A stretch of 64,000 nt of DNA from a virus. Shown here in pieces: positions 4,695 to 45,039 of this stretch (position 1 is the first letter of the stretch; the number at the start of each line of letters is the position of its first letter). A program made the translations under genes and the position numbers. Below the pieces are notes generated by a model. The model saw nothing but the letters and a program-made list of their open reading frames with translations. It ran no database searches and was not told the DNA's origin. Location of the stretch: positions 1 through 64,000 of IMG/VR virus record IMGVR_UViG_3300034095_001343; one strand, written 5' to 3'.

Positions 4695-5276
4695 ATGCAA
4701 AGCCCAGTTACAGTAGTTCCTGATGAGAATGGTATGATCATTCGTCAAAGCAAGAACAATCCAGAGTATGCCTATGTTATCTTAAAGCAAACTCGTAGTA
4801 TGATTCAGTCTAATCCTGCAAATATTAAAAATGTAGGATGGTTAAAAACCCAAAACATGACAACCCTTATTAAAGGTACCATGCAAGATCTTAAAGTTTT
4901 CGGTTTTACAAAAGACACTATTCTTCCAGGTAAAATTGTAGTTAAAGAATCAACTACACCTTTTAGTGAAGAAAATCCTGATCAGCATTTAAAAATTGCT
5001 GGTGATACAGGAGTTATTTGTTGTTTACACGGTGAACCTATTTATAGAATCACTTATTATACAACAAATCCCGATGAGCAAGATGAATTTATGCAACATG
5101 ATAATGTTGATGCAATTCGTCAAGCAAATGGTATTGTATCAGATAAAATTAAAAATTCAGTGAAAGAAACTGTTAAAATTCAGGAAACTTTTGATATCAC
5201 TGAAAATGATGAAATAACTGATATAACTGACGATTCTACAATTATAGATGAAGTAGAAGATACTTTTGAGCTTTAA
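4695..5276 (+). CDS. Hypothetical protein with acidic C-terminal tail (possible ssDNA-binding protein)
   Basis: Beta-rich N-terminus, acidic tail ending DTFEL, terminator downstream. Confidence 0.55.
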   Translation: MQSPVTVVPDENGMIIRQSKNNPEYAYVILKQTRSMIQSNPANIKNVGWLKTQNMTTLIKGTMQDLKVFGFTKDTILPGKIVVKESTTPFSEENPDQHLKIAGDTGVICCLHGEPIYRITYYTTNPDEQDEFMQHDNVDAIRQANGIVSDKIKNSVKETVKIQETFDITENDEITDITDDSTIIDEVEDTFEL

Positions 5277-8189: not shown

Positions 8190-8768
8190 ATGTTTTATAA
8201 ATATAACAAACAAAAACTATTATTTGAACCTGTTTATAGGGAAATAATAGTATTCGGAAGTATTTGCTTTATTATTGTAGTATCTACACTATTAAGTGGT
8301 ATTGTAGTAGGAAAAAATATTACAAAAGCGCAAATTATTGAGTTAGAAGGTGGTATTCATATAATAAGAGATAATGATCAGGTCTTCTCTAAAAACGATT
8401 TAATAGATATGATTAAAGAGTTAGATGTTAAATACCCTTATATAGTATTAGCACAATCTATTCTTGAAACCGGTCATTGGACATCTATAGTGTTTAAAGA
8501 GAATCATAATTTATTTGGAATGAAAATGGCCAATAAAAGAATTAAAACTGCTAAAGGAACACAACTTAATCATGCTTATTATAATAACTGGCAAGAAAGT
8601 GTCTATGATTATGCTTTTTATCAATGCAGATATTTAAGCAAAATTAATTCTGAACAAGAATATTATGATGCGTTAGATGCAACTTATGCAGAAGCATTTA
8701 AGTATTCTGAGAAGTTAAAAGAAATTATTAAAAATGAAAAATTAAAAGAAATTTTTTATCATGAATAA
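8190..8768 (+). CDS. GH73 glucosaminidase-family peptidoglycan hydrolase with N-terminal TM segment
   Basis: LAQSILETG...NLFGMK...YA motifs. Confidence 0.8.
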   Translation: MFYKYNKQKLLFEPVYREIIVFGSICFIIVVSTLLSGIVVGKNITKAQIIELEGGIHIIRDNDQVFSKNDLIDMIKELDVKYPYIVLAQSILETGHWTSIVFKENHNLFGMKMANKRIKTAKGTQLNHAYYNNWQESVYDYAFYQCRYLSKINSEQEYYDALDATYAEAFKYSEKLKEIIKNEKLKEIFYHE

Positions 8769-9849
8769 CAAAGACTCTATTCAAGAACAAGCCTTAAAAG
8801 AGATAGAAAAACACGAAAGATGCGGTGTAGGTATTTCAATGGGTGTTGGTAAGACAAGAATTGCCATAAAACATTTAATAAAAAACTTTCATCCTTTTGT
8901 AAAAGCTTTAGTTGTAATACCTAAATTATCTATTAAGGATTCTTGGGATGATGAACTAAAAAAAATGAATCTAGAAAAATTAAGCAGTCATATAGTATTT
9001 ACAACATATCTTTCTATAAACAAGCAGGATCCAACTGATTATGATATTGTCTATTTAGATGAATGTCATAGTCTTTTGGATACTCATGAAATGTTTTTAA
9101 AAAAGTTTAAAGGAAAAATTGTTGGTTTAACCGGTACACCACCCATTAGAAAGGAAAGTGAAAAATATAGGATGGTTTATAAATATTGTCCTATGGTATT
9201 TAATTTTTCTGTAGATCAAGCCACTGATCAAAAAATTCTAAATAATTATAAAATCTTTATTCATAAAATTGAACTAAGTAAATTACAAACATTAAAGAAG
9301 AAAAAGAAAAATGGTGGAGTGTGGTATACTTCTGAAAGAAATGATTATGAATATTTAACAAGACAATTAGCAGAAGCCACTACACCAAAACAAATGCAGT
9401 TTTTTTCTATTTTAAGAATGAGAGCAATGATGGATTATAACACTAAAGAAATGTATGTTAAAAGCATTTTAAAACAAGTAAATGATAAGTGTATTATATT
9501 TGCTAATACTCAAGAACAAGCTGATAGAATTTGTAAATATAGTTTTCATTCTAATAATATTAAGTCTGATGAGAATTTGCAATTATTTAAAGATTCTAGA
9601 ATACAAAAATTATCATGTGTTATGCAATTAAATGAAGGTGTCACTATTCCCAATTTAAAAGTTGGAATTATTATGCATTCATATGGTAATGAACGTAAAA
9701 GCAATCAGAGGATAGGTAGACTCCTCAGACTTAATCCTACTGAAACTGCATATATACACATTCTTTGCTATAAAGATACCATTGATGAAAAATGGATAAA
9801 CAATGCACTGGAAGGATTAGATCAAAGTAAAATTATAAATGTAAATTAA
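8761..9849 (+). CDS. Superfamily 2 DNA helicase
   Basis: MGVGKT, DECH, LTGTP, QRIGRLLR. Confidence 0.9.
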   Translation: MNNKDSIQEQALKEIEKHERCGVGISMGVGKTRIAIKHLIKNFHPFVKALVVIPKLSIKDSWDDELKKMNLEKLSSHIVFTTYLSINKQDPTDYDIVYLDECHSLLDTHEMFLKKFKGKIVGLTGTPPIRKESEKYRMVYKYCPMVFNFSVDQATDQKILNNYKIFIHKIELSKLQTLKKKKKNGGVWYTSERNDYEYLTRQLAEATTPKQMQFFSILRMRAMMDYNTKEMYVKSILKQVNDKCIIFANTQEQADRICKYSFHSNNIKSDENLQLFKDSRIQKLSCVMQLNEGVTIPNLKVGIIMHSYGNERKSNQRIGRLLRLNPTETAYIHILCYKDTIDEKWINNALEGLDQSKIINVN

Positions 9850-9853
9850 GATT

Positions 9854-10105
9854 ATGAACAAATTAAAACTATCAGCATCCAAAGAGATTTGGGATGAAAC
9901 CAACCCACTTCCATGCGTAAGAATAGCGTTTTTATCAGACTTCACGGATGGCAATTTATTGATTGATTGGGAGAAGTGGATTGACTATTGTCAAACATAT
10001 TATAAAGAAGAATGGGTACAAAAGCCAAATACGGTAATAGATTATGAAGGCACTTTGGAAGGTGCGAACAAATGGATATTACTTAATTTTATAAATTGGC
10101 TATGA
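9854..10105 (+). CDS. Hypothetical protein (first ORF of the attC-like array)
   Basis: ORF followed by GCACCTAAC site. Confidence 0.6.
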   Translation: MNKLKLSASKEIWDETNPLPCVRIAFLSDFTDGNLLIDWEKWIDYCQTYYKEEWVQKPNTVIDYEGTLEGANKWILLNFINWL

Positions 10106-10145
10106 TATGAATAGGAAACTGTTGCCTGATGTGAGCGGTAATTTT

Positions 10146-10204
10146 GCACCTAACGTTTTGCAGCTTGATAGGGCTATTACGCAAAACCCTTGTTATGTGC
10201 CGTT
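10146..10204 (+). repeat. attC-like site 1 (short, possibly hybrid)
   Basis: GCACCTAAC-GTTTTGC...GCAAAAC-CCTT-GTTATGTGC. Confidence 0.6.
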
Positions 10205-10216
10205 AAATTTAGAAAT

Positions 10217-10429
10217 ATGATAGGAGTACAAATAAAAAATGGCTTTATTGATTTTGCCAAAACAGACTTTGAATGTCCAATTTGTAAAAAGCAATACAAT
10301 GATAGGGATGATAAATACCTTGAACGATGCCAAAGAAACAAGCAAGGAATAACCAAAATAAAATGCGAATGTGGTAAGCCGTTTTTTATGACTTACAATT
10401 ATATGGGTGATGCTGTGTCGTTTGTATAA
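10217..10429 (+). CDS. Zn-ribbon hypothetical protein (cassette ORF)
   Basis: CPIC...CECG; bracketed by GTTATGTGCCGTT/AATGGCACATAAC. Confidence 0.65.
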   Translation: MIGVQIKNGFIDFAKTDFECPICKKQYNDRDDKYLERCQRNKQGITKIKCECGKPFFMTYNYMGDAVSFV

Positions 10430-10533
10430 TGGCACATAACGGTTGAGGCTAAGAGCAGTTGCCTTAAATACTGCTTAAAATTTGCACTATGCTTAATGGC
10501 AATTGCTTTTAGCCTTTGTTATCGGTTCGGTGC
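10428..10533 (+). repeat. attC-like site 2
   Basis: GCACATAAC-GGTTG-18 bp stem (AGGCTAAGAGCAGTTGCC/GGCAATTGCTTTTAGCCT)-TT-GTTATCGGT. Confidence 0.7.
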
Positions 10534-10549
10534 GGTAATTGAAACGAAA

Positions 10550-10681
10550 ATGACAGATAAAGAAATTTTAGAAATCGACTTTTATGACTTATGCGGATGC
10601 GCTGCATTATGGATGACTGATGAAGATAAGATTAAGTATTACAGGGAATGTATGAACGCAGCTTCAAGCACTGACCGATAA
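10550..10681 (+). CDS. Small hypothetical protein (cassette ORF, 43 aa)
   Basis: MTDKEILE...; stop codon overlaps ACCGATAAC. Confidence 0.5.
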   Translation: MTDKEILEIDFYDLCGCAALWMTDEDKIKYYRECMNAASSTDR

Positions 10682-10762
10682 CATAGATATTGGCGAACAT
10701 TTTACACGCATAACTGTGTCCAAGTAAAATTAGAAAAAAGAAATTATTAAACCCACATTAAA

Positions 10763-10969
10763 ATGAGTAAAACAAAACAATTATTTATGGAAATTAGAGA
10801 AAAAGAAGGAGATCAACATATGTTGGAAAATTCTTCTGTATTTAATTCAAACATATTATGTCCTAACTGTATGAAAAGGAATCTCCTGGAATACAGTCAT
10901 ATTGATCTATACTGTGAAGGATGTGGTCAAGAATTTATTAAAGTTGGAAAAGCAGTGAGATTTAAATAA
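10763..10969 (+). CDS. Zn-ribbon protein
   Basis: CPNC...CEGC. Confidence 0.65.
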   Translation: MSKTKQLFMEIREKEGDQHMLENSSVFNSNILCPNCMKRNLLEYSHIDLYCEGCGQEFIKVGKAVRFK

Positions 10970-10982
10970 ATTAAATCAAAAA

Positions 10983-11405
10983 TTATAATCTTGTTTTTAT
11001 ATTAGGTACTATAATAATTTGTACATCAAAAGTACGGGCATGCATAACATAATTTCCCCATACTTCAATATTTGCAATTTTTGTTTTTGCTATATAACCA
11101 AGACTTGTAGGAATTTGATAACCAATTGTTTTATCATAACTTCTTAACCAGAATGGTGAGATAAAGAATCCCTTATATTCAATAATATTTTGCCAATAAA
11201 AATTATTCCAAGCCGTGTTTAACGGATGATATATTAAACCAACTCTTGGACCAAAATTAAAATCTCCTTCTGTATAGATCTGTTGATAACTTATTTGAAT
11301 AGCAGCACCTTTATTATTTACAGTAAGTGCTGGCAAAAGTCTCTCTTCTTGTGCTTGAGATAATACAAAAGTAAAAACGAGCATTATAGTTAAGTAAATC
11401 TTCAT
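10983..11405 (-). CDS. Secreted or outer-membrane beta-rich protein
   Basis: Signal peptide; amphipathic beta strands; own promoter at 11412-11440 (-). Confidence 0.6.
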   Translation of the reverse strand: MKIYLTIMLVFTFVLSQAQEERLLPALTVNNKGAAIQISYQQIYTEGDFNFGPRVGLIYHPLNTAWNNFYWQNIIEYKGFFISPFWLRSYDKTIGYQIPTSLGYIAKTKIANIEVWGNYVMHARTFDVQIIIVPNIKTRL

Positions 11406-11524
11406 AATTATAATTTAGATATAAATTTTGAATAATGCAAGATTTAAAGATTAATTTTACATTAAATCTGTTATTTAACAATTTTTTAATAAAAATAATT
11501 AGTAATTAAAAAAAATAATTAAAT

Positions 11525-11863
11525 ATGATAAAATTAAATAAATCAGTTAATTCAATTAAAGTAATAAAAAGAAAAATAAATAACTTTCTTTACCCAATTG
11601 AAAATGACTTTAATATTGAATATATAAAAAAGAAAACGGCAGAAGAATGTTGTGAGCTTGCAACTGCTTTGATGCAAAATGTAAATAAAAAAAAAGCATT
11701 TAATGATCAGCAAATTGAAAATGAAATAGCTGATGTTTTAATGTGGATAAATGAATTAGCAAAATATTATGATTCAGATTATATTGGTGCTAGAATAGAG
11801 AAGAAAAAAAATAATTATTTTAAAGATGAAAAAGTACATCATAATTATCTCAGATCCTGGTGA
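11525..11863 (+). CDS. MazG-like NTP pyrophosphohydrolase
   Basis: EECCELA...IENEIADV (ExxE...ExxD). Confidence 0.7.
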   Translation: MIKLNKSVNSIKVIKRKINNFLYPIENDFNIEYIKKKTAEECCELATALMQNVNKKKAFNDQQIENEIADVLMWINELAKYYDSDYIGARIEKKKNNYFKDEKVHHNYLRSW

Positions 11864-11896
11864 TGAACAAGCTGGAAGCCATATTTTATTGGAAAT

Positions 11897-12280
11897 ATGA
11901 AAGATAATCTTTTTATGAAGCTTACTGTCAAAGATGGTGAGCTTTATTTTCCGTTAAAAGCTAATGAAACAAGGTTTAAAAACTTTCTAAAATCTATTCC
12001 TGATGGTGCTCATTTAGAATTATTTATTGGAGTTACTACAGATAAAGGTAGCAATGCACAACTTGCAAGAATACACGCCATGTGCAGAGAAATAGCTAAT
12101 GAACTTGGTTATACATTTGAAGAAATTAAACTTATGGTAAAAAGAAAGTCAGGTTTATGTTTTACAAGAAATAAAACAGAGTATTGTAAATCTTTTGCAG
12201 ACTGTGATAAATTAGAACTAAATCTTGCAATTCAAGCTTGTATTGAAATAGGAGATTTTAGTGAATTAAATTTGAGATAA
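11897..12280 (+). CDS. NinB-like recombination protein (tentative)
   Basis: S.AQLARIHAMCREIANELGYTFEEIK. Confidence 0.5.
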   Translation: MKDNLFMKLTVKDGELYFPLKANETRFKNFLKSIPDGAHLELFIGVTTDKGSNAQLARIHAMCREIANELGYTFEEIKLMVKRKSGLCFTRNKTEYCKSFADCDKLELNLAIQACIEIGDFSELNLR

Positions 12281-12685
12281 TAAATCATTTTTTGCTTCTT
12301 CATAAAGTTTTGTTACTTTACTTGAATCATTATTCATATATGCTTGAAGTATATCTTTAATTTTTGATTCATCAAAGGTAGTTGAAGATTTTTTAACTAA
12401 ATTTTGTTCAAAAGCAGCAGCCCTTAGTAATTGTTGTAATGCAAATAAAGTATACATATGAACTTCAAGTTCTTCAAGTTTAATTTCTTCGGGATTACTA
12501 CTGGTAAGAAGTTGTTCAAATTTATTAAACATTGTAGGAACAACAGATTTATCAGTAAAATGCTCTGTTAAAAAAAATAAAATAATTCTTTCTAGACCTA
12601 AAATAAAACCTGTATTAATTTCAAGACCTGTAACATTTTTTGTAAGGTCATATATTTCAATAGGTTGGATGTTTTTATCTGACAT
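12266..12685 (-). CDS. Hypothetical protein
   Basis: ORF; likely start MSDKNIQ at 12685. Confidence 0.6.
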   Translation of the reverse strand: MSDKNIQPIEIYDLTKNVTGLEINTGFILGLERIILFFLTEHFTDKSVVPTMFNKFEQLLTSSNPEEIKLEELEVHMYTLFALQQLLRAAAFEQNLVKKSSTTFDESKIKDILQAYMNNDSSKVTKLYEEAKNDLLSQI

Positions 12686-12706
12686 AAAATAAATTTTAAC
12701 AAAAAT

Positions 12707-13405
12707 ATGGAAAAAATAATAGAAATTCCAATCATCAAGCAAAAACTTTCTGAAATCATGATTAATCATAATTGGAAAGCTTTAGATTTTTTTCTTAATC
12801 AATTAGAATTTCAAATCTTAATAGAAAAATTAATTCAAGAACATACACTTGGCTATAAGTTTACTCCTAAACTAACTGAATGTTTTAATGGTATTTTAAC
12901 TTGTCCATCAAATGATGTTAAAGTATTAATTATTGGACAAGATCCATACCCTCAAAAAGATGTTGCTGATGGTATTGCTTTTAGTTGTAGTAAAACAATG
13001 AAAGAACAACCTTCATTAAAACATATTTTTAACGAAGTACAGAAATTATACCCTGAAGGATATAATAGAGACCCAAACTTAGAAAAATGGACCCGACAAG
13101 GTATAATTATGTTTAATACTGCACTTACATGTAGAGTTGGAGACATTGGTTCACATTATCACATTTGGAAAGGCTTTACAGCTTTTTTTCTTGAATACTT
13201 AAATAGATCTAATAAAGATTGCATAACCGTTCTTCTTGGTAAAAAAGCTGAAGAATGGTCTAAATATGTTAATAATCATGATGTTATAAAAGTAAGTCAT
13301 CCGGCATCTGCTGCTTATACAGGAGGTAACTGGGACAGCAATAATTTATTTGAAACTATCAACAAAAAGCTTCAAAAACTTGGCAAAAAGCCTATTATTT
13401 GGTAA
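12707..13405 (+). CDS. ung: Uracil-DNA glycosylase (family 1)
   Basis: GQDPY, ADGIAFS, PSL, SHPAS. Confidence 0.93.
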   Translation: MEKIIEIPIIKQKLSEIMINHNWKALDFFLNQLEFQILIEKLIQEHTLGYKFTPKLTECFNGILTCPSNDVKVLIIGQDPYPQKDVADGIAFSCSKTMKEQPSLKHIFNEVQKLYPEGYNRDPNLEKWTRQGIIMFNTALTCRVGDIGSHYHIWKGFTAFFLEYLNRSNKDCITVLLGKKAEEWSKYVNNHDVIKVSHPASAAYTGGNWDSNNLFETINKKLQKLGKKPIIW

Positions 13406-29881: not shown

Positions 29882-31885
29882 ATGAATCACTGGGTACATG
29901 ATTATGAAACATTAAAAAATTGCTTTGTTGCAGTATTTGAACATTATAAAAACTCAGAGAGAAAAGTTTTTATTGTTCATGATTTACAAAATGACTTTCA
30001 AAACTTTATAAATTTTTTAAAACAGAATGAAAAAAATAAGGAGTGGCATATATCTTACAATGGTTTAGCTTTTGATGCTCAGATAACACATTATATTATA
30101 GACAACCAAAATTTATGGATTAATCTAAGCGGTTGTCAAATTGCTGAAATCATTTATGCTTATGCCTCTAAATGTATAAGTAGAAGTAACACAAAAGAAT
30201 TTCATGATTATGCACTGTGGAATATGTGTATTGGTCAAATTGACTTGTTTAAAATGCATCACTGGGATAATCCTGCAAAGAGATCTAGTTTAAAATGGAT
30301 ACAGTATAGTATGGATTGGGATAACATTCTTGAAATGCCTATTCATCACAATACTTTGATTACAACTAAAGAACAGATAGATACTATTGTAGACTACTGC
30401 ATAAATGATGTGCAGTCTACCAAAGAAATATTTAAAAGATCAGAATCACAAATTAGATTAAGAAAAGAACTGACTAAGACATATGGTATTAATTTGTATA
30501 GTGCCTCAGAACCAAGGATAAGTAAAGAACTCTTTGCTTATTACATGTCTGAGAAACTAAATATACAGAAGAAAGATATTAAAGCAATGAGAACTTATAG
30601 AAATAAGATTAAGTTGGCAGATGTCATTCTACCTTATGTAAAGTTTAACTCACCTGAATTTAAATCCTTATTAGAAAGATTCCGGGCTGTTGAACTTAGT
30701 CCAGATAACTTAAAAGGCGGTTTTAAATACTCCGTTAACTATAAAGGTGTTACAACACATTTTGGTTTAGGCGGTGTTCATGGTGCTAGAAAAGCAGGTG
30801 TATATAAATCAGATGATGAATATGTAATTATGACTTCTGATGTAACAAGCTTTTATCCAAATCTTGTTATCAGGAATCAATGGGCACCAGGTCACTTTCC
30901 TAAGAAAGAATTTTGTAATCAATATGAATGGTTCTTTGAAGAAAGAAAAAAGATTCCTAAAAAGGACCCAATGAATTATGTTTATAAGATTATTTTAAAT
31001 TCTACTTTTGGTTTAAGTAATGATAAGAATAGTTTCTTCTATGATCCTGAACTTACTATGCAAATTACAATTAACGGTCAGTTAAGTTTGATGATGCTAT
31101 ATGAAATGATCATGGAAAGAATACCAAAGGCAATACCTCTAATGCAGAACACAGATGGTATAGAGACAAGAATTCCTAGAATTTACATTGATGAATACAT
31201 GAATATATGTAAAGAATGGGAACAGATTACTAATCTAGCTTTAGAACATGATGAATATCAAAAATTGATAATAGGTGATGTAAATAACTATATTGGTTTG
31301 AATAACTTTAAACAGGTTGATATCACTACATGGAGAAATGTTAAAAAAGAATACCCTCATTATGTATTTAAAGTTGAAGGTGATAAATTCATGTATGCAC
31401 CGGCTAAACTTAAAGGTAGATTTGACTTTTATGATTTAGCATTGCACAAGAATAAATCTAAATTAATTATACCTAAAGCTATCTACCATTATTTTATCCA
31501 TGATACTTTACCTCATGTTTATCTAGAACAAAACAAGAATATTCTTGATTATTGTATAGGTAGTAAATCTAAAGGTGAATGGAAACAAGTTGCTAAAGCA
31601 ATTAAAGATGGTAAATACTATGAAGAAGATCTTCAGAAGATTAACAGATACTATATTGCCAAAATGAGTGGAAATGAAGAAGTTAAAATAATAAAAGTAA
31701 ATACAATTGACAAAAGAGAAATTCAGCTTGAAGCTGGTAAATGGATGCAAAAGCTATTTAATAAAATAGATATCAAACCACAATGGGAAGATTATAATAT
31801 TGATAAAGAATATTATATTAACGCAATTGAATCAGAAATAAATAATATTATTAATACATCAGTAAATCAAATAAAACTTTTTTAA
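29882..31885 (+). CDS. DNA polymerase family B (crAss-type)
   Basis: Exonuclease DYET, YNG..FD, YC.ND; polymerase SDVTSFYPN, KIILNSTFG, NTDG. Confidence 0.92.
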   Translation: MNHWVHDYETLKNCFVAVFEHYKNSERKVFIVHDLQNDFQNFINFLKQNEKNKEWHISYNGLAFDAQITHYIIDNQNLWINLSGCQIAEIIYAYASKCISRSNTKEFHDYALWNMCIGQIDLFKMHHWDNPAKRSSLKWIQYSMDWDNILEMPIHHNTLITTKEQIDTIVDYCINDVQSTKEIFKRSESQIRLRKELTKTYGINLYSASEPRISKELFAYYMSEKLNIQKKDIKAMRTYRNKIKLADVILPYVKFNSPEFKSLLERFRAVELSPDNLKGGFKYSVNYKGVTTHFGLGGVHGARKAGVYKSDDEYVIMTSDVTSFYPNLVIRNQWAPGHFPKKEFCNQYEWFFEERKKIPKKDPMNYVYKIILNSTFGLSNDKNSFFYDPELTMQITINGQLSLMMLYEMIMERIPKAIPLMQNTDGIETRIPRIYIDEYMNICKEWEQITNLALEHDEYQKLIIGDVNNYIGLNNFKQVDITTWRNVKKEYPHYVFKVEGDKFMYAPAKLKGRFDFYDLALHKNKSKLIIPKAIYHYFIHDTLPHVYLEQNKNILDYCIGSKSKGEWKQVAKAIKDGKYYEEDLQKINRYYIAKMSGNEEVKIIKVNTIDKREIQLEAGKWMQKLFNKIDIKPQWEDYNIDKEYYINAIESEINNIINTSVNQIKLF

Positions 31886-32189: not shown

Positions 32190-32239
32190 TTTTTGTTTAA
32201 TAAATATTGTATATTTGTAAAATCTTAAACATTTAAATT

Positions 32240-32869
32240 ATGGGAAAAACAAATAAACAATGTATGATTGGTAAAAAATATGGTATACTAACAGTTATAT
32301 CTGAAATTGAAACCAGAAACAAAAATGGTCACATATTGTATAATGTACAGTGTGACTGTGGAAAAGAAAAACAAGTTTTAGGTGCATCATTAAGAAGTGG
32401 TGCATCTAGAAGTTGTAATAAATGTTCACTTCTAACAGGATCACATGGTATGTGGAAGTCTAGAGAATTTTCAATATGGCAATCTATGAAAGACAGATGT
32501 TATAATTCTAACAATCCTCGTTATAAAAACTATGGAGGAAGAGGAATTATTATCTGTGATAAATGGAAAGATTCATTTAGTAATTTTTATTTAGATATGG
32601 GAGAATCAAAAGATTTAACTATAGATAGAATAGATGTAAATGGAAATTATGATCCTAATAATTGTAGATGGGCTACACCAAAGATTCAAGCTAGAAATAG
32701 AACTAATAACAAAGTATATACGTACTTACAAGAAACTTTATGTATGTCAGAGTGGTGTGAAAAATTAAATATTTCAACCTCAACATTTAATAATAGAATT
32801 CTTAGAGGATGGTCTATAGAAAAAATAGTAAATACACCAATTAATATTAAAAATAGAAAAATAAATTAA
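32240..32869 (+). CDS. Free-standing HNH homing endonuclease
   Basis: CDCG, WQSMKDRC, YGGRGI, TIDRIDVNGNYDPNNCRWAT. Confidence 0.88.
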   Translation: MGKTNKQCMIGKKYGILTVISEIETRNKNGHILYNVQCDCGKEKQVLGASLRSGASRSCNKCSLLTGSHGMWKSREFSIWQSMKDRCYNSNNPRYKNYGGRGIIICDKWKDSFSNFYLDMGESKDLTIDRIDVNGNYDPNNCRWATPKIQARNRTNNKVYTYLQETLCMSEWCEKLNISTSTFNNRILRGWSIEKIVNTPINIKNRKIN

Positions 32870-37821: not shown

Positions 37822-39162
37822 TCATCGGCTTACTTCTTCCCAGTCTATAGAGGCATAAGCACTTTCACCACCAGAAGTTGTTGCTACAGCTACTTCAAAT
37901 GTTAGTTCATAAGCTACACCAGTAAAAGGATTTCTTTCTAATTGGTTAGCAAAAAGAGCCTGTTTTAATATATCAAGAGAAGGAGAGCCTTGATTAGAAG
38001 AATTAATATATCCACTAGCTAAAATCCTACCTCCTGTTACACTAGTTCCTGTAAGGTTATATTCTACAGAGGAATCACCTGGAGCATTAAACCAAGTTCC
38101 ACCAGAAGTTATAGCTCCGTTCACTACTCTCCATTGGTAGTTTTTACCATTGCCTGTTCCTAAGAAAGAAATAGCAGTTGCAATAATAATAGCATCAAGT
38201 CTAGTAGATTGTAACCTAATAGTTAATATAGGGTAATATGTACCAGCTACAGCAAAAGTTCTAGGTGCAGTAATAGGAACACCAATTGCTTGTTGTGCTC
38301 CTCTAAGTTCGTAACCTCCTTCTGAGATTACAGTAGAACAGATTTGCTTAAATGTAGAAGAACCGGTGGTACCTGCTGTATTAAATATCTCATAACAGAT
38401 AGGAAGAGAAGCAGTAGTAATATAAGTACTAGTAATTAAATTGGCGTGATGGAAAGTATGACAAACAATAAACTGTCCGTTAATTACAAATCCCATTCTA
38501 ACTGAACCAACACCTAACCACTCAAAGTCAGCCCATAAGATTTGAGCTTTAGTTAAATCTAAAGTAAGTCCTGAAGGACCAGTACCGTTTAACTTATCTC
38601 CATTCCAAGCAGACTGTACAACAGGAGTATTTACAACAGCTCCTGTTACAGAAGACCTTTCTACTAATTGAACTGTGGTTCCTACTTGTTCTAAATAATA
38701 ACCATTACTAGTTCCAAAGTATCCAACACGTTGAGTAAGTCCTGCTTTAGCAGAACTCATTACAAATGTATTAAGAACTAAAAGAGATTTACCAGGCTGA
38801 TAAGAGAAAACTTTAATAGTCTCTCTAAGTACTGAAGAACCTGAAGCTGCTGTTACGTTTAAGTCAATAAGTCCTTCGTTAGCATTAAACACTGAAGTAC
38901 CTCCAGTAGCAGTAGAAGTAGCCCAGAGTCCGTTATCATCAAATCTATGGCTTGAATCAAATAAAGTAAAAGGAGAAGATGTTCTCAGTCTGCCAAAAGA
39001 ATCCAAATAAGTTGGGTTAAATGAAATAGCTTCTGTAGTTTGGTTATTAATACTTGTATCAATATCAACTAGTTTCTTAAGCATTTCATAATGCCAAGTA
39101 TACCATTCTGGATGTTGACCATAACCATCTAGGTAGAATCTTCTTTTTGGATCAAGTGTCAT
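37822..39162 (-). CDS. Putative virion structural protein (beta-rich)
   Basis: DSFGRLRTSSPFTLFDS...YQPGKS...FEWLGVG; late block. Confidence 0.65.
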   Translation of the reverse strand: MTLDPKRRFYLDGYGQHPEWYTWHYEMLKKLVDIDTSINNQTTEAISFNPTYLDSFGRLRTSSPFTLFDSSHRFDDNGLWATSTATGGTSVFNANEGLIDLNVTAASGSSVLRETIKVFSYQPGKSLLVLNTFVMSSAKAGLTQRVGYFGTSNGYYLEQVGTTVQLVERSSVTGAVVNTPVVQSAWNGDKLNGTGPSGLTLDLTKAQILWADFEWLGVGSVRMGFVINGQFIVCHTFHHANLITSTYITTASLPICYEIFNTAGTTGSSTFKQICSTVISEGGYELRGAQQAIGVPITAPRTFAVAGTYYPILTIRLQSTRLDAIIIATAISFLGTGNGKNYQWRVVNGAITSGGTWFNAPGDSSVEYNLTGTSVTGGRILASGYINSSNQGSPSLDILKQALFANQLERNPFTGVAYELTFEVAVATTSGGESAYASIDWEEVSR

Positions 39163-40104: not shown

Positions 40105-40290
40105 TTATTTTTTAGTTTTATATCCGCCACCAGCGGCTTTATACTCTTTTGCAAGCATTTGTGCTTTTCTAGCAGACCATTGTCCTGGATTACCACCTTT
40201 AGAACCAGATTTGATCTTTTCAAATAAAGATTTTCTCATACCCGGTTTAGTATAATTACCTGCTTCGTTTACTTTACTTTTAGATTGCAT
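40105..40290 (-). CDS. Small basic protein
   Basis: NYTKP.MRK...GG.PGQWSARKAQ...GGGYK. Confidence 0.7.
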   Translation of the reverse strand: MQSKSKVNEAGNYTKPGMRKSLFEKIKSGSKGGNPGQWSARKAQMLAKEYKAAGGGYKTKK

Positions 40291-40510
40291 TGTTTCCTAC
40301 TTTAAATAAACCAAGAGTAATACCTTCTAATAAGGAATTTTTAGCCCATAAAAATACCCAACCTAATAATGATATAGGTATAATTGTAGACCAAGCAGCA
40401 AAATCTTTCTCATGAAATAAATTCATAACAATCATTATTAATGATCCAATCAAAAATAATACACCAATAAAAGTTGTTATACCCTCTCTTAATCTATGCT
40501 TTGCTGTCAT
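40280..40510 (-). CDS. Holin candidate (2 TM segments)
   Basis: Two hydrophobic helices; next to the spanin-like gene. Confidence 0.45.
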   Translation of the reverse strand: MTAKHRLREGITTFIGVLFLIGSLIMIVMNLFHEKDFAAWSTIIPISLLGWVFLWAKNSLLEGITLGLFKVGNNAI

Positions 40511-41010
40511 CCTATTAATCTTTTTATAAACGTTAATATTGTTTTTCTATATGTAATAATTCCAAGCAATGTAATTAAAAAAGACCAAATAATTAAAGGA
40601 AATTTCCACCAATAGCTTTTATAAATAATTACCGGTTTTTCTACCTGCACTTCTTTTGTTCTATAACGGATCTCAGTATTACCTGGTACATGAACTTTAA
40701 TTGTATCTATTCTAGCTTTAGTTTTTAATCTATTATTCTTTAAATTTAGTTCTAAATTAACAAGCTTTCCCTGAAGACTAAATATTTCTACAATCTTTAC
40801 TTTTCCTAAACTGTCACATTCAAGTAAAGCTTCAATATAGGAACTATCTGCTTTAACATTAACAATAGTATCCTTTATGTAAATACTATCTCTTATAAAT
40901 TCAGTAGTATGTGTTTTACATTCATTACATATTATTTCTCTTTGTTCTTTTGTTATAAAACAAGAAGACAAAAGACTACTACCTATTAATATAATAAGGG
41001 TATTTTTCAT
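40507..41010 (-). CDS. Lipoprotein with C-terminal TM segment (unimolecular spanin-like)
   Basis: Lipobox LLSSC; C-terminal WWKFPLIIWSFLITLLGII. Confidence 0.6.
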   Translation of the reverse strand: MKNTLIILIGSSLLSSCFITKEQREIICNECKTHTTEFIRDSIYIKDTIVNVKADSSYIEALLECDSLGKVKIVEIFSLQGKLVNLELNLKNNRLKTKARIDTIKVHVPGNTEIRYRTKEVQVEKPVIIYKSYWWKFPLIIWSFLITLLGIITYRKTILTFIKRLIG

Positions 41011-41031
41011 TATTTTAGATACTAAGTTTTA

Positions 41032-41373
41032 TTATACTGTTACAACCTCAATATTATCAGCACCATATATAGGTGTAAGGGTATCCACTACAAACTCAAT
41101 TAACATGGCCTCCGCTGCCTCTGTTTCATATCTTAAAACTGCCAGCTCTCCTGTTAGTGTGGTGTTAAAATCTGATACATTTGGAATGGATGTTTTTCCA
41201 TCTAAAAACGCCTGCTCATTTTGATACAATAGAGTTGCTACTTGGGTGGGGATATACCCATCTTTTTGGCTTTTGTTATCTGTGTATGCCTCGGCAATTA
41301 CTAAGATACTTCCACTTGCTACGACCATACCGCTAGACAAGTTTACTTCTGAATTAATTTTTACTGTTTTCAT
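41032..41373 (-). CDS. Hypothetical (tail-associated) protein
   Basis: ORF in the tail-fibre cluster. Confidence 0.6.
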   Translation of the reverse strand: MKTVKINSEVNLSSGMVVASGSILVIAEAYTDNKSQKDGYIPTQVATLLYQNEQAFLDGKTSIPNVSDFNTTLTGELAVLRYETEAAEAMLIEFVVDTLTPIYGADNIEVVTV

Positions 41374-41398
41374 TTTTATTTGTTTTTTATTTTTATGA

Positions 41399-41635
41399 TT
41401 ATACTATTTCTGGCAAATTTACTTCAAATTCTGTTGGTTGTCCTAATATTGGAACAAGAGATACATCATACATAATATACCAAAATACAGGCACATTTAA
41501 ACCTGCATATAAGTAATTTGTCCAATGTGTAGTAGTATCACTTTCATTTGCAGGAATACCATGATAAACATCACACGCACTTATAGCATCTTTTGCATCT
41601 TGTTCTGTGTTGTATTTATATCCGTTATATACCAT
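41399..41635 (-). CDS. Hypothetical (tail fibre accessory) protein
   Basis: ORF in the tail-fibre cluster. Confidence 0.6.
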   Translation of the reverse strand: MVYNGYKYNTEQDAKDAISACDVYHGIPANESDTTTHWTNYLYAGLNVPVFWYIMYDVSLVPILGQPTEFEVNLPEIV

Positions 41636-42500
41636 AATATGCCCTAATATTATTTACAATGTTTACTTCATTTGATGAATTGTCTCCACTAAACATTACT
41701 ACCTCTTGAATTTGTCCGTCTAAAAAGTCCTGACTGTTATTATTTAATGAACCAAGTCCTAATTTTACTAATGTTGTTCTTGGTGTGCCTGAATAGGTGG
41801 CAGTATTATTCGCTCCACTGTTTAATCCTGCACGTATTTGAGTTCCAACTTTTGATGTTTTAAATACATATTGAGTATTTGCGGAAACTGTTGGGCTATT
41901 TACTGTAGTAAATGAACCTGCTGTATTAAAAAATAAATTTCTTACAACATTTGTAGATCTATAAATATATTGAGCCACTCTACCATTAGGTAAAACTAAG
42001 TCATCTTGGTCTAATATTGAACAATTTAAGGGAGCCGTTGTATTTACTAAACCAACTGCACACGCTAAAAATTCCCCATTTTGTACACTAACCCCTGCAG
42101 ATGTAAGTAATCCTGTACTTGATGCAGATATAAATTGACAAGATGCTAATAGATTTATAGTATTTAAAACTCCTGATATTACAATTTTTGGCTGCTTTAA
42201 TGCAGTAGTTTGTAACACATCATAAGTAGACCCTCCCACCTGCGAATACCACTTTACTACAAATCCATCTGTAGCAGAACAGAATGATAGCAAACTTGCT
42301 GTATCTAAAACATTTGCAACAAAACCTATGTCTGATTCTGCATTATCACTTGAACGTCTTACACGAATTGCCGCTCCTCCATAAGCATTTGTCAACTTTC
42401 TTAAAGAATATGCAGCCGTGCTATTTGGATATAAATCCAATAACAACGGGGTTGCAGGTGTTGCTGAAGTAGCTAATATGCCGTTTATTGCTAATATCAT
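41625..42500 (-). CDS. Tail-associated lectin/concanavalin-like protein
   Basis: AAYSLRKL...AIRVRRSSDNAESDIGF...DGFVVKWY...GQIQEVV. Confidence 0.65.
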   Translation of the reverse strand: MILAINGILATSATPATPLLLDLYPNSTAAYSLRKLTNAYGGAAIRVRRSSDNAESDIGFVANVLDTASLLSFCSATDGFVVKWYSQVGGSTYDVLQTTALKQPKIVISGVLNTINLLASCQFISASSTGLLTSAGVSVQNGEFLACAVGLVNTTAPLNCSILDQDDLVLPNGRVAQYIYRSTNVVRNLFFNTAGSFTTVNSPTVSANTQYVFKTSKVGTQIRAGLNSGANNTATYSGTPRTTLVKLGLGSLNNNSQDFLDGQIQEVVMFSGDNSSNEVNIVNNIRAYYGI

Positions 42501-42501
42501 T

Positions 42502-45039
42502 TTATACCGCTATATCTCCAAACAAATACCATTCATTTGTAGCAATCTTAATCAATGTTGCTCCGCTATATTGACCGCTTAATTTCAACTTGCCTCCATT
42601 ACTTCTAATTGTCACCCCACCTGTTGCTACAACTGTTGTCTGTCCTGCACCATATTGTGAGATTAATATCTGTGTGCCTACGCTATATGCAACTGTGCTA
42701 TCCAATGGAACAGTTAAATTGTTTGCACTTCCCACATTCATCTCCACTAATTTATTTGCATCACCAAGAACTAAAGTATATGATGCAGCTTGTCTGTTGG
42801 TAGTAACTAATTTTGTGTCTTCCCACGCAGTACCGTTATAAAAATTATTTGAATTTGTTGTTGTGTTGTATATCTCAAGTCCTGTTGCCGGAGATACTAT
42901 AGCATTTCTTTGGGTTGTAGTCATTCTTGGCATCAAAAACCCTTGTGTGGTACTATCTGCTTGAAGGACTGCACTTGCATTTACTGCCGATGTATTGAAA
43001 TATCCGCCTCCGGTAACACTTTCAAAAGCTCTGTGATCTATTGTGCCGGTTAATGTCGGGTTGTGGTATATTCCCCTAAATATTTTTGTCCCGGTCTGCA
43101 AGTTCATATTAATTGCCGGATTAATCTCGATTTGGTTTACTGTTACGTTAGTTGCAGGTAATACGGCAATATATCCTTGATTTACTTCAACGTGTTTTCT
43201 GGTTCCGGCTGTAATTGCTATTGTATTAACCGTAGTATTTCCAATAGTCACCCAACCAATATTTGCATTTACCGGCTGAATAGCTACACCAGTAGCATTC
43301 CCCTCAATAGTTAATACACTATTGTTAAGAGTAGTTATTGTATTTGGAACAAAAATAGTATTAGTATCTAATCTTAATACACCTGTACTTCCATTATTAA
43401 CTTGAAACCTTGTACCAGCAGGGTGTCCAAAACTACCACCACCAAACTTTACCGCACCATCATCTCTGATTTGCAGCGTATCATTCCCGGCACTATCTGT
43501 ATTGATCTGACTAAAAGTAGCCGTTGTTGTTCCACTTCCTTTAATTAATGTTTGTTGACCAAATCGTTGCCAAGCTGCACCATCATAAATGTCCGTTGTT
43601 TTTGTTGTGGTATTATAGATACTTAACCCGATTGCAGGTGTGGCTATGGCATTTCTTTGTGCCGTTGTCATTCGTGGCATTAAAAAACCTTGTGTAGTGC
43701 TATCTGCTTGCAATACTGCGCTGGCATTTACAGAGGTTGTATTAAAATGCCCTCCTCCGGATGATGATTCAAAGGCTCTGTGGCTTGTTACTCCTGTTAC
43801 TGTTGGATTATGATAAAATCCTCTAACTATTTTTGTCCCAGTACCGGTGGTGAGATTTATTACATTCTCACTTTTTAAGATATTTACTTCAGGATTTGTA
43901 GATACAGCAAAAGCAGTCCAGTTTCTTGTGAATCTTATAAAATTAAATTCTCCACTATAGGGAGCTGTGTTAACTTCTGAACCTCCAAAGTCTATGGTTG
44001 CAGAGTTGGGGTTTCCATTTCTAAAAGTAATACTTCCGGTTGGTTGTAATAGGCCATTCATAGAGCGCAAAACTGCACTATCTCCAAAAACACAATCACT
44101 TTGCGAAACTGCCAAACATACGTTGTCTGCTTGGTCTTTTACTTGAAATCTGACACTGAAGCTAAGGGCTCCATTAGGCCCAACAAATGCTGTCCCATCA
44201 TCTCGAACGGAAAACTGCAAAACATTAGAGCTATTGGTTATTATTTGACTAAATGTCGCTGATGTTGCTCCACTGCCTTTTATATTTAATTTTGCAGCTC
44301 CTCCAACAGCTACTCCAATACTCATTCTGGTGTTTGCGGTGTCAAATTGTAAAAGACTATTTTTTGCCAGCTGAATTGCAGAATCTACAAAGAGCATATC
44401 TCCGGAGGCTGCTCCAGATACTGCGTCTCCTATGGCTATCCCTCCAACACTTGATGAAGCAATGGTTATAATTCCATCTGCTGACGTTCCCGTAGTTGTT
44501 AATGTTATTCCACTACCTTCTACTAATTTTACACTTCCACCTGTTGCAGATAAAGTTGCTGTATGTGAAGTTGCATCTGATGTGTTAGCTAAGGTCTGAT
44601 TTCCGCTATTTGTTCCGCTTGTATTGCCTATTACTGTTAATTGTGCATCTGTTACATAGTTCTTATTAGTACTTGCTGCTATATCTGCTGTGGTTGCATC
44701 TGCACCTGCTGTTACAAGTCCTTTGGCATCATAGGTTATCTTGGTCTTTGTTGCACCCGTGATAGCTGCATTTTCATCAACCTTGCTATCTAATGCACTT
44801 TGTAAATCGGTTTGTAATGAAAGTGTACCCGTAATGCTACCCCATGTAAGAGAAGTAGAGCTTGCAATCCAAGTTTTAAGAGTTTTTAAACTCATTATAA
44901 ATGGTTGCATTCTGGGATTTGGCTTTAAAGCCTCTTGCGGATTATCAAAAGCAGCTAAAATGATATAATCATCATTTTTTGGAGACTTTGTTTGTTTTCT
45001 TTTAAGTAACCCTAATATGTCTTGAAGTACAGTATTCAT
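42502..45039 (-). CDS. Tail fibre protein with internal ~249-aa duplication
   Basis: T/S/G-rich; two STTQGFLMPRMTT.QRNAI..PA.GL.IYNTT units. Confidence 0.8.
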   Translation of the reverse strand: MNTVLQDILGLLKRKQTKSPKNDDYIILAAFDNPQEALKPNPRMQPFIMSLKTLKTWIASSTSLTWGSITGTLSLQTDLQSALDSKVDENAAITGATKTKITYDAKGLVTAGADATTADIAASTNKNYVTDAQLTVIGNTSGTNSGNQTLANTSDATSHTATLSATGGSVKLVEGSGITLTTTGTSADGIITIASSSVGGIAIGDAVSGAASGDMLFVDSAIQLAKNSLLQFDTANTRMSIGVAVGGAAKLNIKGSGATSATFSQIITNSSNVLQFSVRDDGTAFVGPNGALSFSVRFQVKDQADNVCLAVSQSDCVFGDSAVLRSMNGLLQPTGSITFRNGNPNSATIDFGGSEVNTAPYSGEFNFIRFTRNWTAFAVSTNPEVNILKSENVINLTTGTGTKIVRGFYHNPTVTGVTSHRAFESSSGGGHFNTTSVNASAVLQADSTTQGFLMPRMTTAQRNAIATPAIGLSIYNTTTKTTDIYDGAAWQRFGQQTLIKGSGTTTATFSQINTDSAGNDTLQIRDDGAVKFGGGSFGHPAGTRFQVNNGSTGVLRLDTNTIFVPNTITTLNNSVLTIEGNATGVAIQPVNANIGWVTIGNTTVNTIAITAGTRKHVEVNQGYIAVLPATNVTVNQIEINPAINMNLQTGTKIFRGIYHNPTLTGTIDHRAFESVTGGGYFNTSAVNASAVLQADSTTQGFLMPRMTTTQRNAIVSPATGLEIYNTTTNSNNFYNGTAWEDTKLVTTNRQAASYTLVLGDANKLVEMNVGSANNLTVPLDSTVAYSVGTQILISQYGAGQTTVVATGGVTIRSNGGKLKLSGQYSGATLIKIATNEWYLFGDIAV

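Follow-up and report, generated by a model that had tools for sequence, protein, structure and literature searches.

A probable integron-type gene cassette array, in decay, within a hypervariable slot of a lake-water phage genome

The DNA analysed here (the window) is 64,000 nt long and represents the first 64 kb of the 114,929-bp virus record IMGVR_UViG_3300034095_001343, a 99% complete genome of a lake-water, lytic-type phage. The whole genome is labelled G000; the other G-numbers denote the genomes and phage records compared with it, and L-numbers the loci compared. Positions 10151-10714 very probably constitute a small integron-type cassette array with two cassettes, in a phage that has no recombinase of its own. 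Its features all lie on the plus strand:

10151..10195, plus strand: site 1, a crippled attC-like site with the left arm and most of the loop deleted (site model 16.6 bits)
10154..10439, plus strand: cassette A, 286 nt between its two TAA|C points, with crippled site 1, 5' arm, 70-aa gene and 3' arm
10192..10205, plus strand: 5' arm of cassette A, 14 nt, starting GTTATGTGCC and pairing with 10427-10440
10217..10429, plus strand: 70-aa zinc-ribbon gene, the cargo of cassette A (49 homologue clusters)
10427..10440, plus strand: 3' arm of cassette A, 14 nt, ending GGCACATAAC, in which the TAAC at 10437-10440 is the crossover box of site 2
10437..10521, plus strand: site 2, an intact attC-like site of 85 nt (fold z = -3.3; model 72.5 bits)
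10440..10681, plus strand: cassette B, 242 nt, with site 2, 5' arm, 43-aa gene and 3' arm
10550..10681, plus strand: 43-aa gene, the cargo of cassette B (13 homologue clusters)
10679..10682, plus strand: terminal bare TAAC, an attI- or attG-like array end with no hairpin behind it (same ending in G002)
10683..10714, plus strand: 32-nt stretch closing with a second TAAC (lake-metagenome contigs diverge at both TAAC boxes)

Site 2 reads, in order, TAAC, a 5-nt spacer (GGTTG), an imperfect stem with its loop, a 2-nt spacer (TT) and GTTA. Its stem, given as 18 bp in a first-pass annotation made from the letters alone, has 18-23 bp (10446-10468 with 10493-10515), and the hairpin folds at -17.5 kcal/mol. 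The two arms of cassette A are 93% complementary, and the lone exception is a G.T pair at flank position 7, where 75% of the site family described below carry one as well. An inverted repeat at 10514-10526 and 10674-10686 extends, when a bulged T is allowed, to the arms of cassette B, 10518-10533 (starting GTTATCGG) and 10668-10682 (ending ACCGATAAC), which pair with that one bulged T and one G.T. Both cassettes display the flank pattern of the family, including the conserved G.T at position 7, and the stop codon of the 43-aa gene is the TAA of the terminal TAAC. The first-pass annotation had described an attC-style, integron-like array in a phage, with arm complementarities at 10192 and 10518 and a block richer in GC than its flanks. 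All of this is borne out, the GC fraction being 0.33-0.375 over 9800-10700 and 0.22-0.30 in the flanks. It had called site 1 hybrid and site 3 truncated; both are indeed irregular, and we read them now as an internal deletion and a bare TAAC, respectively.

The statistics of the single genome are only suggestive when taken alone. In 115 kb there are two matches to the strict TAAC-stem-GTTA pattern, which lie in the array, 286 nt apart, and shuffles yield 2.5 genome-wide. Anchored GTTA..TAAC pairs with flanks complementary at 9 or more of 10 positions number one among 866 in the genome (shuffle mean 0.11). At the family level the pattern is beyond chance. A covariance model of the phage sites gives site 2 a score of 72.5 bits on the plus and 19.9 bits on the minus strand, and the window sites match the model built from 26 other contigs at E 1e-11. 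In the rest of the 115-kb genome the model found no further site at E <= 0.1. The locus corresponds to a cluster of attC sites lacking an integrase (CALIN), with one intact site, one degenerate site 286 nt off, a terminal core box and no integrase, and strictly one site would pass the detector.

Sites of this family are abundant in viral contigs. Two short site-derived patterns retrieved at least 120 and 31 viral contigs, and near-identical copies of site 2 are present in 31 viral contigs. An energy-only hairpin finder was too noisy, and a strict energy filter missed AT-rich bacterial sites; the finder was replaced by a pairing rule (TAAC, 5 nt, at least 10 of 12 pairs, 1-3 nt, GTTA). In 1.34 Mb of 150 viral contigs there are 537 sites as opposed to 37 in shuffles, up to 14 per locus and nearly all on one strand, with a median unit of 435 bp and a median site of 89 nt (5-95% range 48-128 nt). 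The stems covary: an alignment of 27 diverse sites including those of the window scores 0.637, compared to 0.176 when shuffled (0 of 500 shuffles reach the observed score) and only 0.07-0.14 with slid partners, and 13 of 15 stem pairs have changed on both sides. Paired bases fill 95.5% of the alignment cells, a percentage inflated by a site finder that demanded pairing. At stem positions outside the criterion of the finder, G.T outnumbers C.A by 212 to 16. The first 15 stem pairs are free of bulges and bear G.T, T.T and C.A irregularities conserved at fixed positions, which may stand in for extrahelical bases as a strand marker. Rfam returned sub-threshold chance matches and no family.

Arrays differ in size among the phages. 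The complete 42.9-kb genome G001, which has terminal repeats, carries at least seven small open reading frames (ORFs), each following a hairpin of 90-125 nt bounded by TAAC...GTTA, and the arrays of G002 and G004 hold five and two sites. The array-bearing phages G000-G004 have no protein in common except that of the 70-aa gene; a recombinase common to all of them was sought and not found. In G001 (L042-L044) the sites form three groups, at 221-888, 11645-12822 and 40235-42790, all on one strand. In its site class of 120-128 nt the cassette ORF begins in the hairpin loop and reads through the right arm, and one of these loop-starting ORFs encodes a signal peptide of lipoprotein type. The loops of about 15% of the non-redundant phage sites (e.g., L145:2140-2165) contain an A/T-rich motif (approximately AACTTAAAATTAAC), and chromosomal attC loops (sites of L222) have a similar GTTAAAATTAATAA in identical orientation relative to the spacer asymmetry. 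Its interpretation as a promoter was dropped, as it is found in about 15% of sites and misfits the Bacteroidota -7 consensus.

The two ends of a cassette are complementary to each other over the intervening ORF. Of 347 adjacent site pairs, 66% show pairing at six or more positions between the 8 nt that follow GTTA and the 8 nt that precede the next TAAC, compared to 2.2% of random pairs and 2.6% for the two flanks of one hairpin. Complementarity amounts to 78-90% at positions 1-5 and 66-74% at positions 8-11, with the conserved G.T at position 7 and frequently a T.T at position 6. Because the ends of a cassette pair with each other, the unit can be regarded as a circular permutation of a circle with one complete long hairpin.

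Where two contigs share a single unit and differ in its neighbours, the similarity starts at the T of the upstream TAAC, stops at the C or G of the TAACG that follows downstream, and is absent beyond these points. Out of 144 unique similarity ends between contigs, the TAAC-5nt box accounts for 37 and the GTTA box for 7. Cassette A resembles the L052 locus at the DNA level through its 3' arm to ...GGCACATAACG (10441), beyond which the two are unrelated. The crossover is inside the TAAC(G) of the long-spacer box, upstream of each hairpin, the exact bond being beyond the resolution of these comparisons. Since this box precedes each hairpin, a cassette consists of a hairpin and the ORF downstream of it, and not of an ORF with a downstream site as previously annotated. 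The expectation that the cassettes would be found in other genomes next to different neighbours proved right, with joints at TAAC(G), which is G|TT on the other strand. Arrays open with a full hairpin and close in a bare ...TAAC, of which 10679-10682 and the end of the G002 array are examples.

The cargo points to a phage source. The 70-aa protein is a CxxC...CxC zinc ribbon with four invariant cysteines in at least 49 homologue clusters (54-96% identity; 76% between the window and L052 copies), and its gene is found in 12 viral contigs of unrelated phages, several times within arrays. Among 185,579 bacterial species genomes the family was found in only 2, both times on contigs of metagenome-assembled genomes (MAGs), and because of this near-absence we attribute the window cargo to a phage cassette pool and not to bacterial cassettes; the capture of Bacteroidota cassettes suggested in the first-pass annotation is contradicted by the same count. 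In the 43-aa protein, whose 13 homologue clusters show 73-97% identity and mostly measure 42-48 aa, a conserved core of 36 aa contains a CGC motif, and the tail, which the arm encodes, varies. Hairpin-less, "domesticated" copies are known for both cargo genes (L030, L229), and the L229 copy of the 43-aa gene shows GTTA..TAAC remnants and no hairpin. The AlphaFold model of the 70-aa protein reached a confidence score (pLDDT) of 66.7, and Foldseek found nothing in the PDB at E <= 0.001. The small ORFs had no usable match in PHROGs or Pfam, and INPHARED gave no match for the DNA of 9000-11500 and none for the 70-aa protein.

The same hairpin and arm pair (5' GTTATGTGCC..., 3' ...GGCACATAAC) encloses three unrelated ORFs in different phages:

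L145, 2109-2198: shared hairpin and arms around an ORF other than the 70-aa gene
L095, approximately 2250-2310: shared hairpin and arms around another such ORF
L052, approximately 4890-4980: shared hairpin and arms
Window, 10166-10205: shared hairpin and arms

Site families are therefore shared by cassettes of different cargo, as in sedentary chromosomal integrons.

Bacterial integrons were sampled from 401 genomes of the phylum of the Chitinophaga-labelled MAG G005, i.e., Bacteroidota. The integron integrase TIGR02249 exceeds its curated cut-off in 113 of these, with up to 497 bits, and full-length integrases in L222, L225 and L226 adjoin arrays of more than 12 cassettes. The sites beside intI read TAAC, a 6-nt spacer GACCCY, stem..stem, a 2-nt TT and GTTA, with a left arm starting GCGTTTAAG and a bulged G, and the flanks in these arrays interlock over 7 nt. 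Bacterial cassette genes lie on the strand opposite to this TAAC-6nt reading and are transcribed away from intI, whereas in 183 of 185 clear cases the phage cassette genes share their strand with the TAAC-5nt reading. The phage-site model hits attC sites in L224, L226 and L219 (E 0.01-0.4), always antisense to the genes.

Because bacterial attC sites show the same asymmetry when read antisense to their genes, the phage gene-sense strand (plus in the window) is the canonical attC bottom strand and TAA|C the canonical R' box, with G|TT opposite. This assignment accounts for the 5-nt and 2-nt spacers and for the G.T wobbles of the top strand; both had been noted correctly, and neither is non-canonical as formerly thought. 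The canonical gene placement, upstream of attC and read away from attI and Pc, is not seen, as the phage genes follow their site. One idea is that the reversed polarity would place the bottom strand on the lagging-strand template and on the non-template strand of transcription bubbles, where it would be foldable, presuming that the genes are co-oriented with replication. The Polaribacter phage P12002L (L227, NC_028924) has three family sites around methyltransferase genes (E 1.5e-4 to 4e-3). At 38035-38936, 32223-32281 and 30008-30056 (minus strand) of this cultured phage, sites of the family bracket genes for DNA methyltransferase and Mom-like proteins, with the polarity of the other phage arrays.

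No recombinase was found in the studied genome, in agreement with the first-pass annotation, which had seen no integrase. G000 has no PF00589 match (controls 14 of 14), nor have four other array-bearing phage records, and tblastn of G000 with bacterial IntI and phage recombinases retrieved nothing (E > 0.2). An intI with attI beside the array, as in a complete integron, is absent from G000. The tyrosine recombinase that had been proposed as a target does exist elsewhere, as the integron integrases of Bacteroidota and as a short enzyme of 265-298 aa, 25-33% identical to bacterial IntI, encoded at 13 of 150 array loci:

L198, 4370-5173: short Xer-like recombinase
L201, 10186-11025: short Xer-like recombinase
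L057, 6297-7193: short Xer-like recombinase
L133, 9456-10253: short Xer-like recombinase
Nine more loci: short Xer-like recombinases

Their best match is the XerA/integron-integrase model (178-206 bits, below the cut-off), and they match TIGR02249 in two pieces. As this match omits profile positions ~182-238, the short phage recombinases appear to be Xer-like enzymes without the IntI insertion. Their genes lie shortly beyond the bare-TAAC end of the array (55-80 nt, as at L198 and L177), on the gene strand, which is the placement of intI beside attI.

The array in the window bears signs of decay. Judging from its intact versions, site 1 is the product of an internal deletion in a formerly full site. 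The versions in L145, L095 and L052 read TAAC, GGTTT (5-nt spacer), a 20-bp stem with its loop, one T and a GTTA core leading into the arm GTTATGTGCC, while in the window the TAAC and the start of the spacer are followed by the end of the loop, the right arm and the GTTA core. The DNA alignment between the window and L052 begins at 10166, and lake-metagenome contigs carry on upstream of 10164 with intact loop sequence. These observations are best explained by cassette A being fixed in place, having lost the left arm of its site, while cassette B could still recombine with the terminal TAAC junction.

At the other end, lake contigs share 10678/9-10714 and diverge on either side at the two TAAC boxes, where they join other sequences. 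The 32-nt stretch 10683-10714 is possibly the remnant of a third cassette; no left arm or site similar to it as a truncated site was found among the loci collected. In contigs of four lake-water runs no cassette-skipping joint was observed, although these are contigs and not reads, and so uninformative on excision. A frame of 30 codons opened by joining 10154 to 10683 was dropped as no better than chance. The segment 10734-10772, like 10679-10714, recurs in lake-water metagenome contigs with different flanks.

The array lies in a variable interval bordered by conserved genes:

8761..9849, plus strand: superfamily-2 DNA helicase gene (PHROG 16, E 6e-31; Pfam ResIII, Helicase_C)
9854..10105, plus strand: 83-aa ORF, a gene of the variable slot, absent from all 28 relatives
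10107..10220, plus strand: 37-codon ORF overlying site 1, with matches elsewhere for the 3' half alone
10763..10969, plus strand: 68-aa zinc-ribbon gene of the backbone, the right border of the replaced stretch (16 related loci)

The helicase gene, conserved backbone in 28 related viral contigs, forms the left border, and the 68-aa gene, MazG and the next gene are likewise common to these relatives. Between helicase and MazG (window 9850-11620; L002-L029) the relatives have a hypervariable slot, near-empty at ~20 bp in L012-L018 and 1.76 kb long in the studied genome. In the closest relatives (L002, L003, L005) it holds a single unrelated 78-aa ORF, to which L002 adds a 2.5-kb insert. The 83-, 70-, 43- and 140-aa ORFs are in none of the 28. 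No TAAC is present at the left edge of the variable block, beside the helicase stop (9850-9853). Ordinary recombination between related phages is therefore the probable route by which the entire block came into this backbone.

Drawing on established integron biology, we propose that each cassette comprises one attC-type folded-DNA site and one small gene enclosed by two arms, which would pair with each other in the circular, excised form. An IntI/Xer-type tyrosine recombinase would bind the hairpin of the gene-sense, canonically bottom strand and exchange single strands at AA|C, within the TAA|C box that adjoins the 5-nt spacer; cassettes would enter and leave there as circles. As the studied phage encodes no such enzyme, it would be supplied in trans, either as a host integron integrase or by a co-infecting phage with a short Xer-like recombinase; we infer on these grounds which enzymes could act, and any current activity of the array is likewise conjectural. 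By analogy to Loot et al. (bioRxiv 10.1101/2022.09.11.507474), the bare junction would be explained by insertion at GWT outside attI, and site 1 by loss of attC through slippage.

We are fairly confident in the interpretation as an integron-type cassette array that is lodged in the hypervariable slot and decays in this genome. Several observations weigh against it nevertheless. Only one of the three sites is intact, the genome has no recombinase, so that activity would rest on an enzyme supplied elsewhere, and the left block edge has no TAAC. The match of the phage-site model to bacterial attC is marginal, the bulged extrahelical bases of classical attC are not seen in the phage sites, and the percentage of paired bases is inflated as described above. 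Moreover, the folding strand doubles as the mRNA strand, and the G.U bias and covariation fit an RNA hairpin equally well.

The last point leads to an alternative in which hairpins and arms are RNA-level elements, for processing, stability, or as promoters and terminators, and in which shuffling occurs by homologous recombination between repeated hairpins. The structures indeed lie upstream of each ORF on the gene-sense strand, which the G.U wobbles favour, A/T-rich motifs recur among their loops, and ORFs of the 120-128-nt class begin within the loop. A precedent for modular shuffling in hyperplastic regions of phages has been published with the promoter-early stem-loops (PeSL) of T4-type phages (PMC2839356, PMC4122927), and the lack of a recombinase in the studied phage would be expected. 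However, breakpoints cluster in an invariant box between neighbouring hairpins unlike in sequence, and homologous recombination would need more than the 4-5 nt shared there. Next to true integron integrases, sites with this geometry run antisense to their genes, which excludes a role in the mRNA; a tyrosine recombinase adjoins the end of related phage arrays, and Rfam holds no matching family. One predicted attC site of P12002L, a genome with model matches, was recombined by IntI1 (PMC9892861). We consider an RNA-level role improbable. That the inverted repeats arose by chance among AT-rich small ORFs can be regarded as refuted already. There are 17 inverted-repeat pairs of similar size within 1.2 kb, the genome-wide count of the strict motif equals the shuffle expectation, and a 9/10 flank match occurs in 11% of shuffled genomes; yet only 286 nt separate the two motif hits, the family-specific G.T is present in both window pairs, and the model from other contigs, the family site counts and the flank statistics all argue for a true family.

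It is possible, though we lean against it, that the array is an inert relic, assembled in another phage that had a recombinase and now immobile after block 9854-10714 entered by ordinary recombination in the helicase and zinc-ribbon genes. This explanation concerns present activity alone and shares origin and mechanism with the decaying cassette array that we favour. The internally deleted site 1, the bare final TAAC, the block edge at the helicase stop, the other unrelated fillings of the slot in the 28 relatives, the lack of a recombinase and of further sites in 115 kb, and the hairpin-less copies of both cargo genes are all in line with it. By contrast, site 2 is intact and scores level with the best family members, and lake contigs join other sequences at 10678/9 and 10714, from which we deduce that exchange at these boxes occurs in the same habitat.

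A wider claim, to which we give even chances, is that Bacteroidota phages maintain their own integron-like system, with hundreds or more of small genes in inverted polarity, moved by short Xer-like recombinases and perhaps by host IntI, of which the array in the window would be a worn-out outpost.

The phage arrays resemble chromosomal integrons in many respects. Both have AAC/GTT cores. In both, a single strand folds into a hairpin whose R and L boxes are separated by an asymmetric spacer left unpaired and whose loop varies from 20 to 80 nt, and one small ORF per unit of 300-1000 bp is found in co-oriented arrays. Cassette ends pair mutually and not with those of the neighbour, the crossover is in the core box by the long spacer, and a bare core box stands at the recombinase end. 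The spacer asymmetry equals that of Bacteroidota arrays beside TIGR02249 integrases. As in attC, the palindrome TAAC...GTTA is conserved in structure over sequence, with spacers of 5 versus 1-3 nt, and the 85 nt of site 2 are within the range of 55-140 nt. Differences concern the opposite strand of the phage cargo genes (183 to 2), the bulged extrahelical bases, none of which were seen in the phage sites, and the absence of integrase and attI from this genome. Phage arms extend 11 nt past the core (7 nt in bacterial arrays), with a T.T/G.T irregularity at positions 6-7, and the recombinase of the phage arrays, with 265-298 aa, is without the profile positions ~182-238 of IntI.

In phages, 17 CALINs were reported among 10,705 genomes by Qi et al. 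(2023, Front Microbiol 14:1091391; PMC9892861). The attC cluster of P12002L is among them, and IntI1 recombined one of two tested sites of this phage, which may be among those hit by our model. The paper likewise describes attC-type sites and cassettes in virulent phages without an integrase. Unlike the present analysis, it treats CALINs as rare integron fragments possibly carrying bacterial cassettes, and its accessible text contains no mention of inverted polarity, the flank rule, abundance in uncultured phages, phage-restricted cargo or the short recombinase. According to Loot et al., IntI inserts cassettes at genomic GWT sites and attC is easily lost by slippage. A cassette inserted at double-stranded GWT outside attI (attG) leaves a bare junction on one side and attC on the other, comparable to 10679-10682, and the slippage loss is comparable to site 1; unlike the phage case, this was shown in E. 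coli with IntI1-3. PeSL (Arbiol et al. 2010, PMC2839356; Comeau et al. 2014, PMC4122927) are likewise repeated hairpin motifs that flank small ORFs without known function in hyperplastic regions and are linked to gene shuffling. These promoter/terminator motifs are thought to be homology-driven, in contrast to the phage arrays, in which the unit flanks pair mutually, the geometry is that of attC, and junctions are confined to the 4-5-nt core. Exchange by homology within the motif, as expected for PeSL, was not observed, the junctions being at TAAC(G) between unlike hairpins. Our literature search on phage attC clusters returned Qi et al. and the T4-type PeSL papers only, and no paper on inverted polarity, extended arms, phage-restricted cargo, uncultured-phage abundance or the short recombinase.

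Integrons are seen as bacterial devices, and phage attC clusters have so far been reported as rare fragments. Two short patterns sufficed to retrieve over 150 viral contigs, with arrays that hold as many as 14 cassettes. Together with cargo that is scarce in bacteria and the reversed polarity, this suggests a parallel cassette economy for small early genes among phages of one large bacterial phylum. If so, it would provide a testable mechanism for phage "hyperplastic regions", a way to catalogue exchangeable phage accessory genes, and a comparison case for the evolution of attC and integrases from Xer-type systems, and lytic phages could swap accessory and counter-defence genes during co-infection. 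The array in the window is small and decayed; its value lies in the intact site, the deleted site and the terminal junction side by side.

The first-pass annotation counted three ORF cassettes, of which those with the 70-aa and 43-aa genes hold; the 83-aa ORF was rejected as a cassette since its homologues (10 clusters, 63-77% identity) exist without any site. Its only recovered homologue context, metagenome locus L228, is without a TAAC/GTTA site and has different surroundings, and a search for an "empty site" through the homologues of this ORF yielded no relative among viral contigs and this single locus in another context. The 37-codon ORF is probably not a gene, because its matching 3' half is the conserved right arm of the hairpin, found upstream of different ORFs. 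The 140-aa ORF (10983-11405, minus strand), unique to the studied genome among the relatives, has no family match and an N-terminal signal-like segment. Beside it, at 11400-11520, the GC content falls to 12%, which may mark a divergent promoter region.

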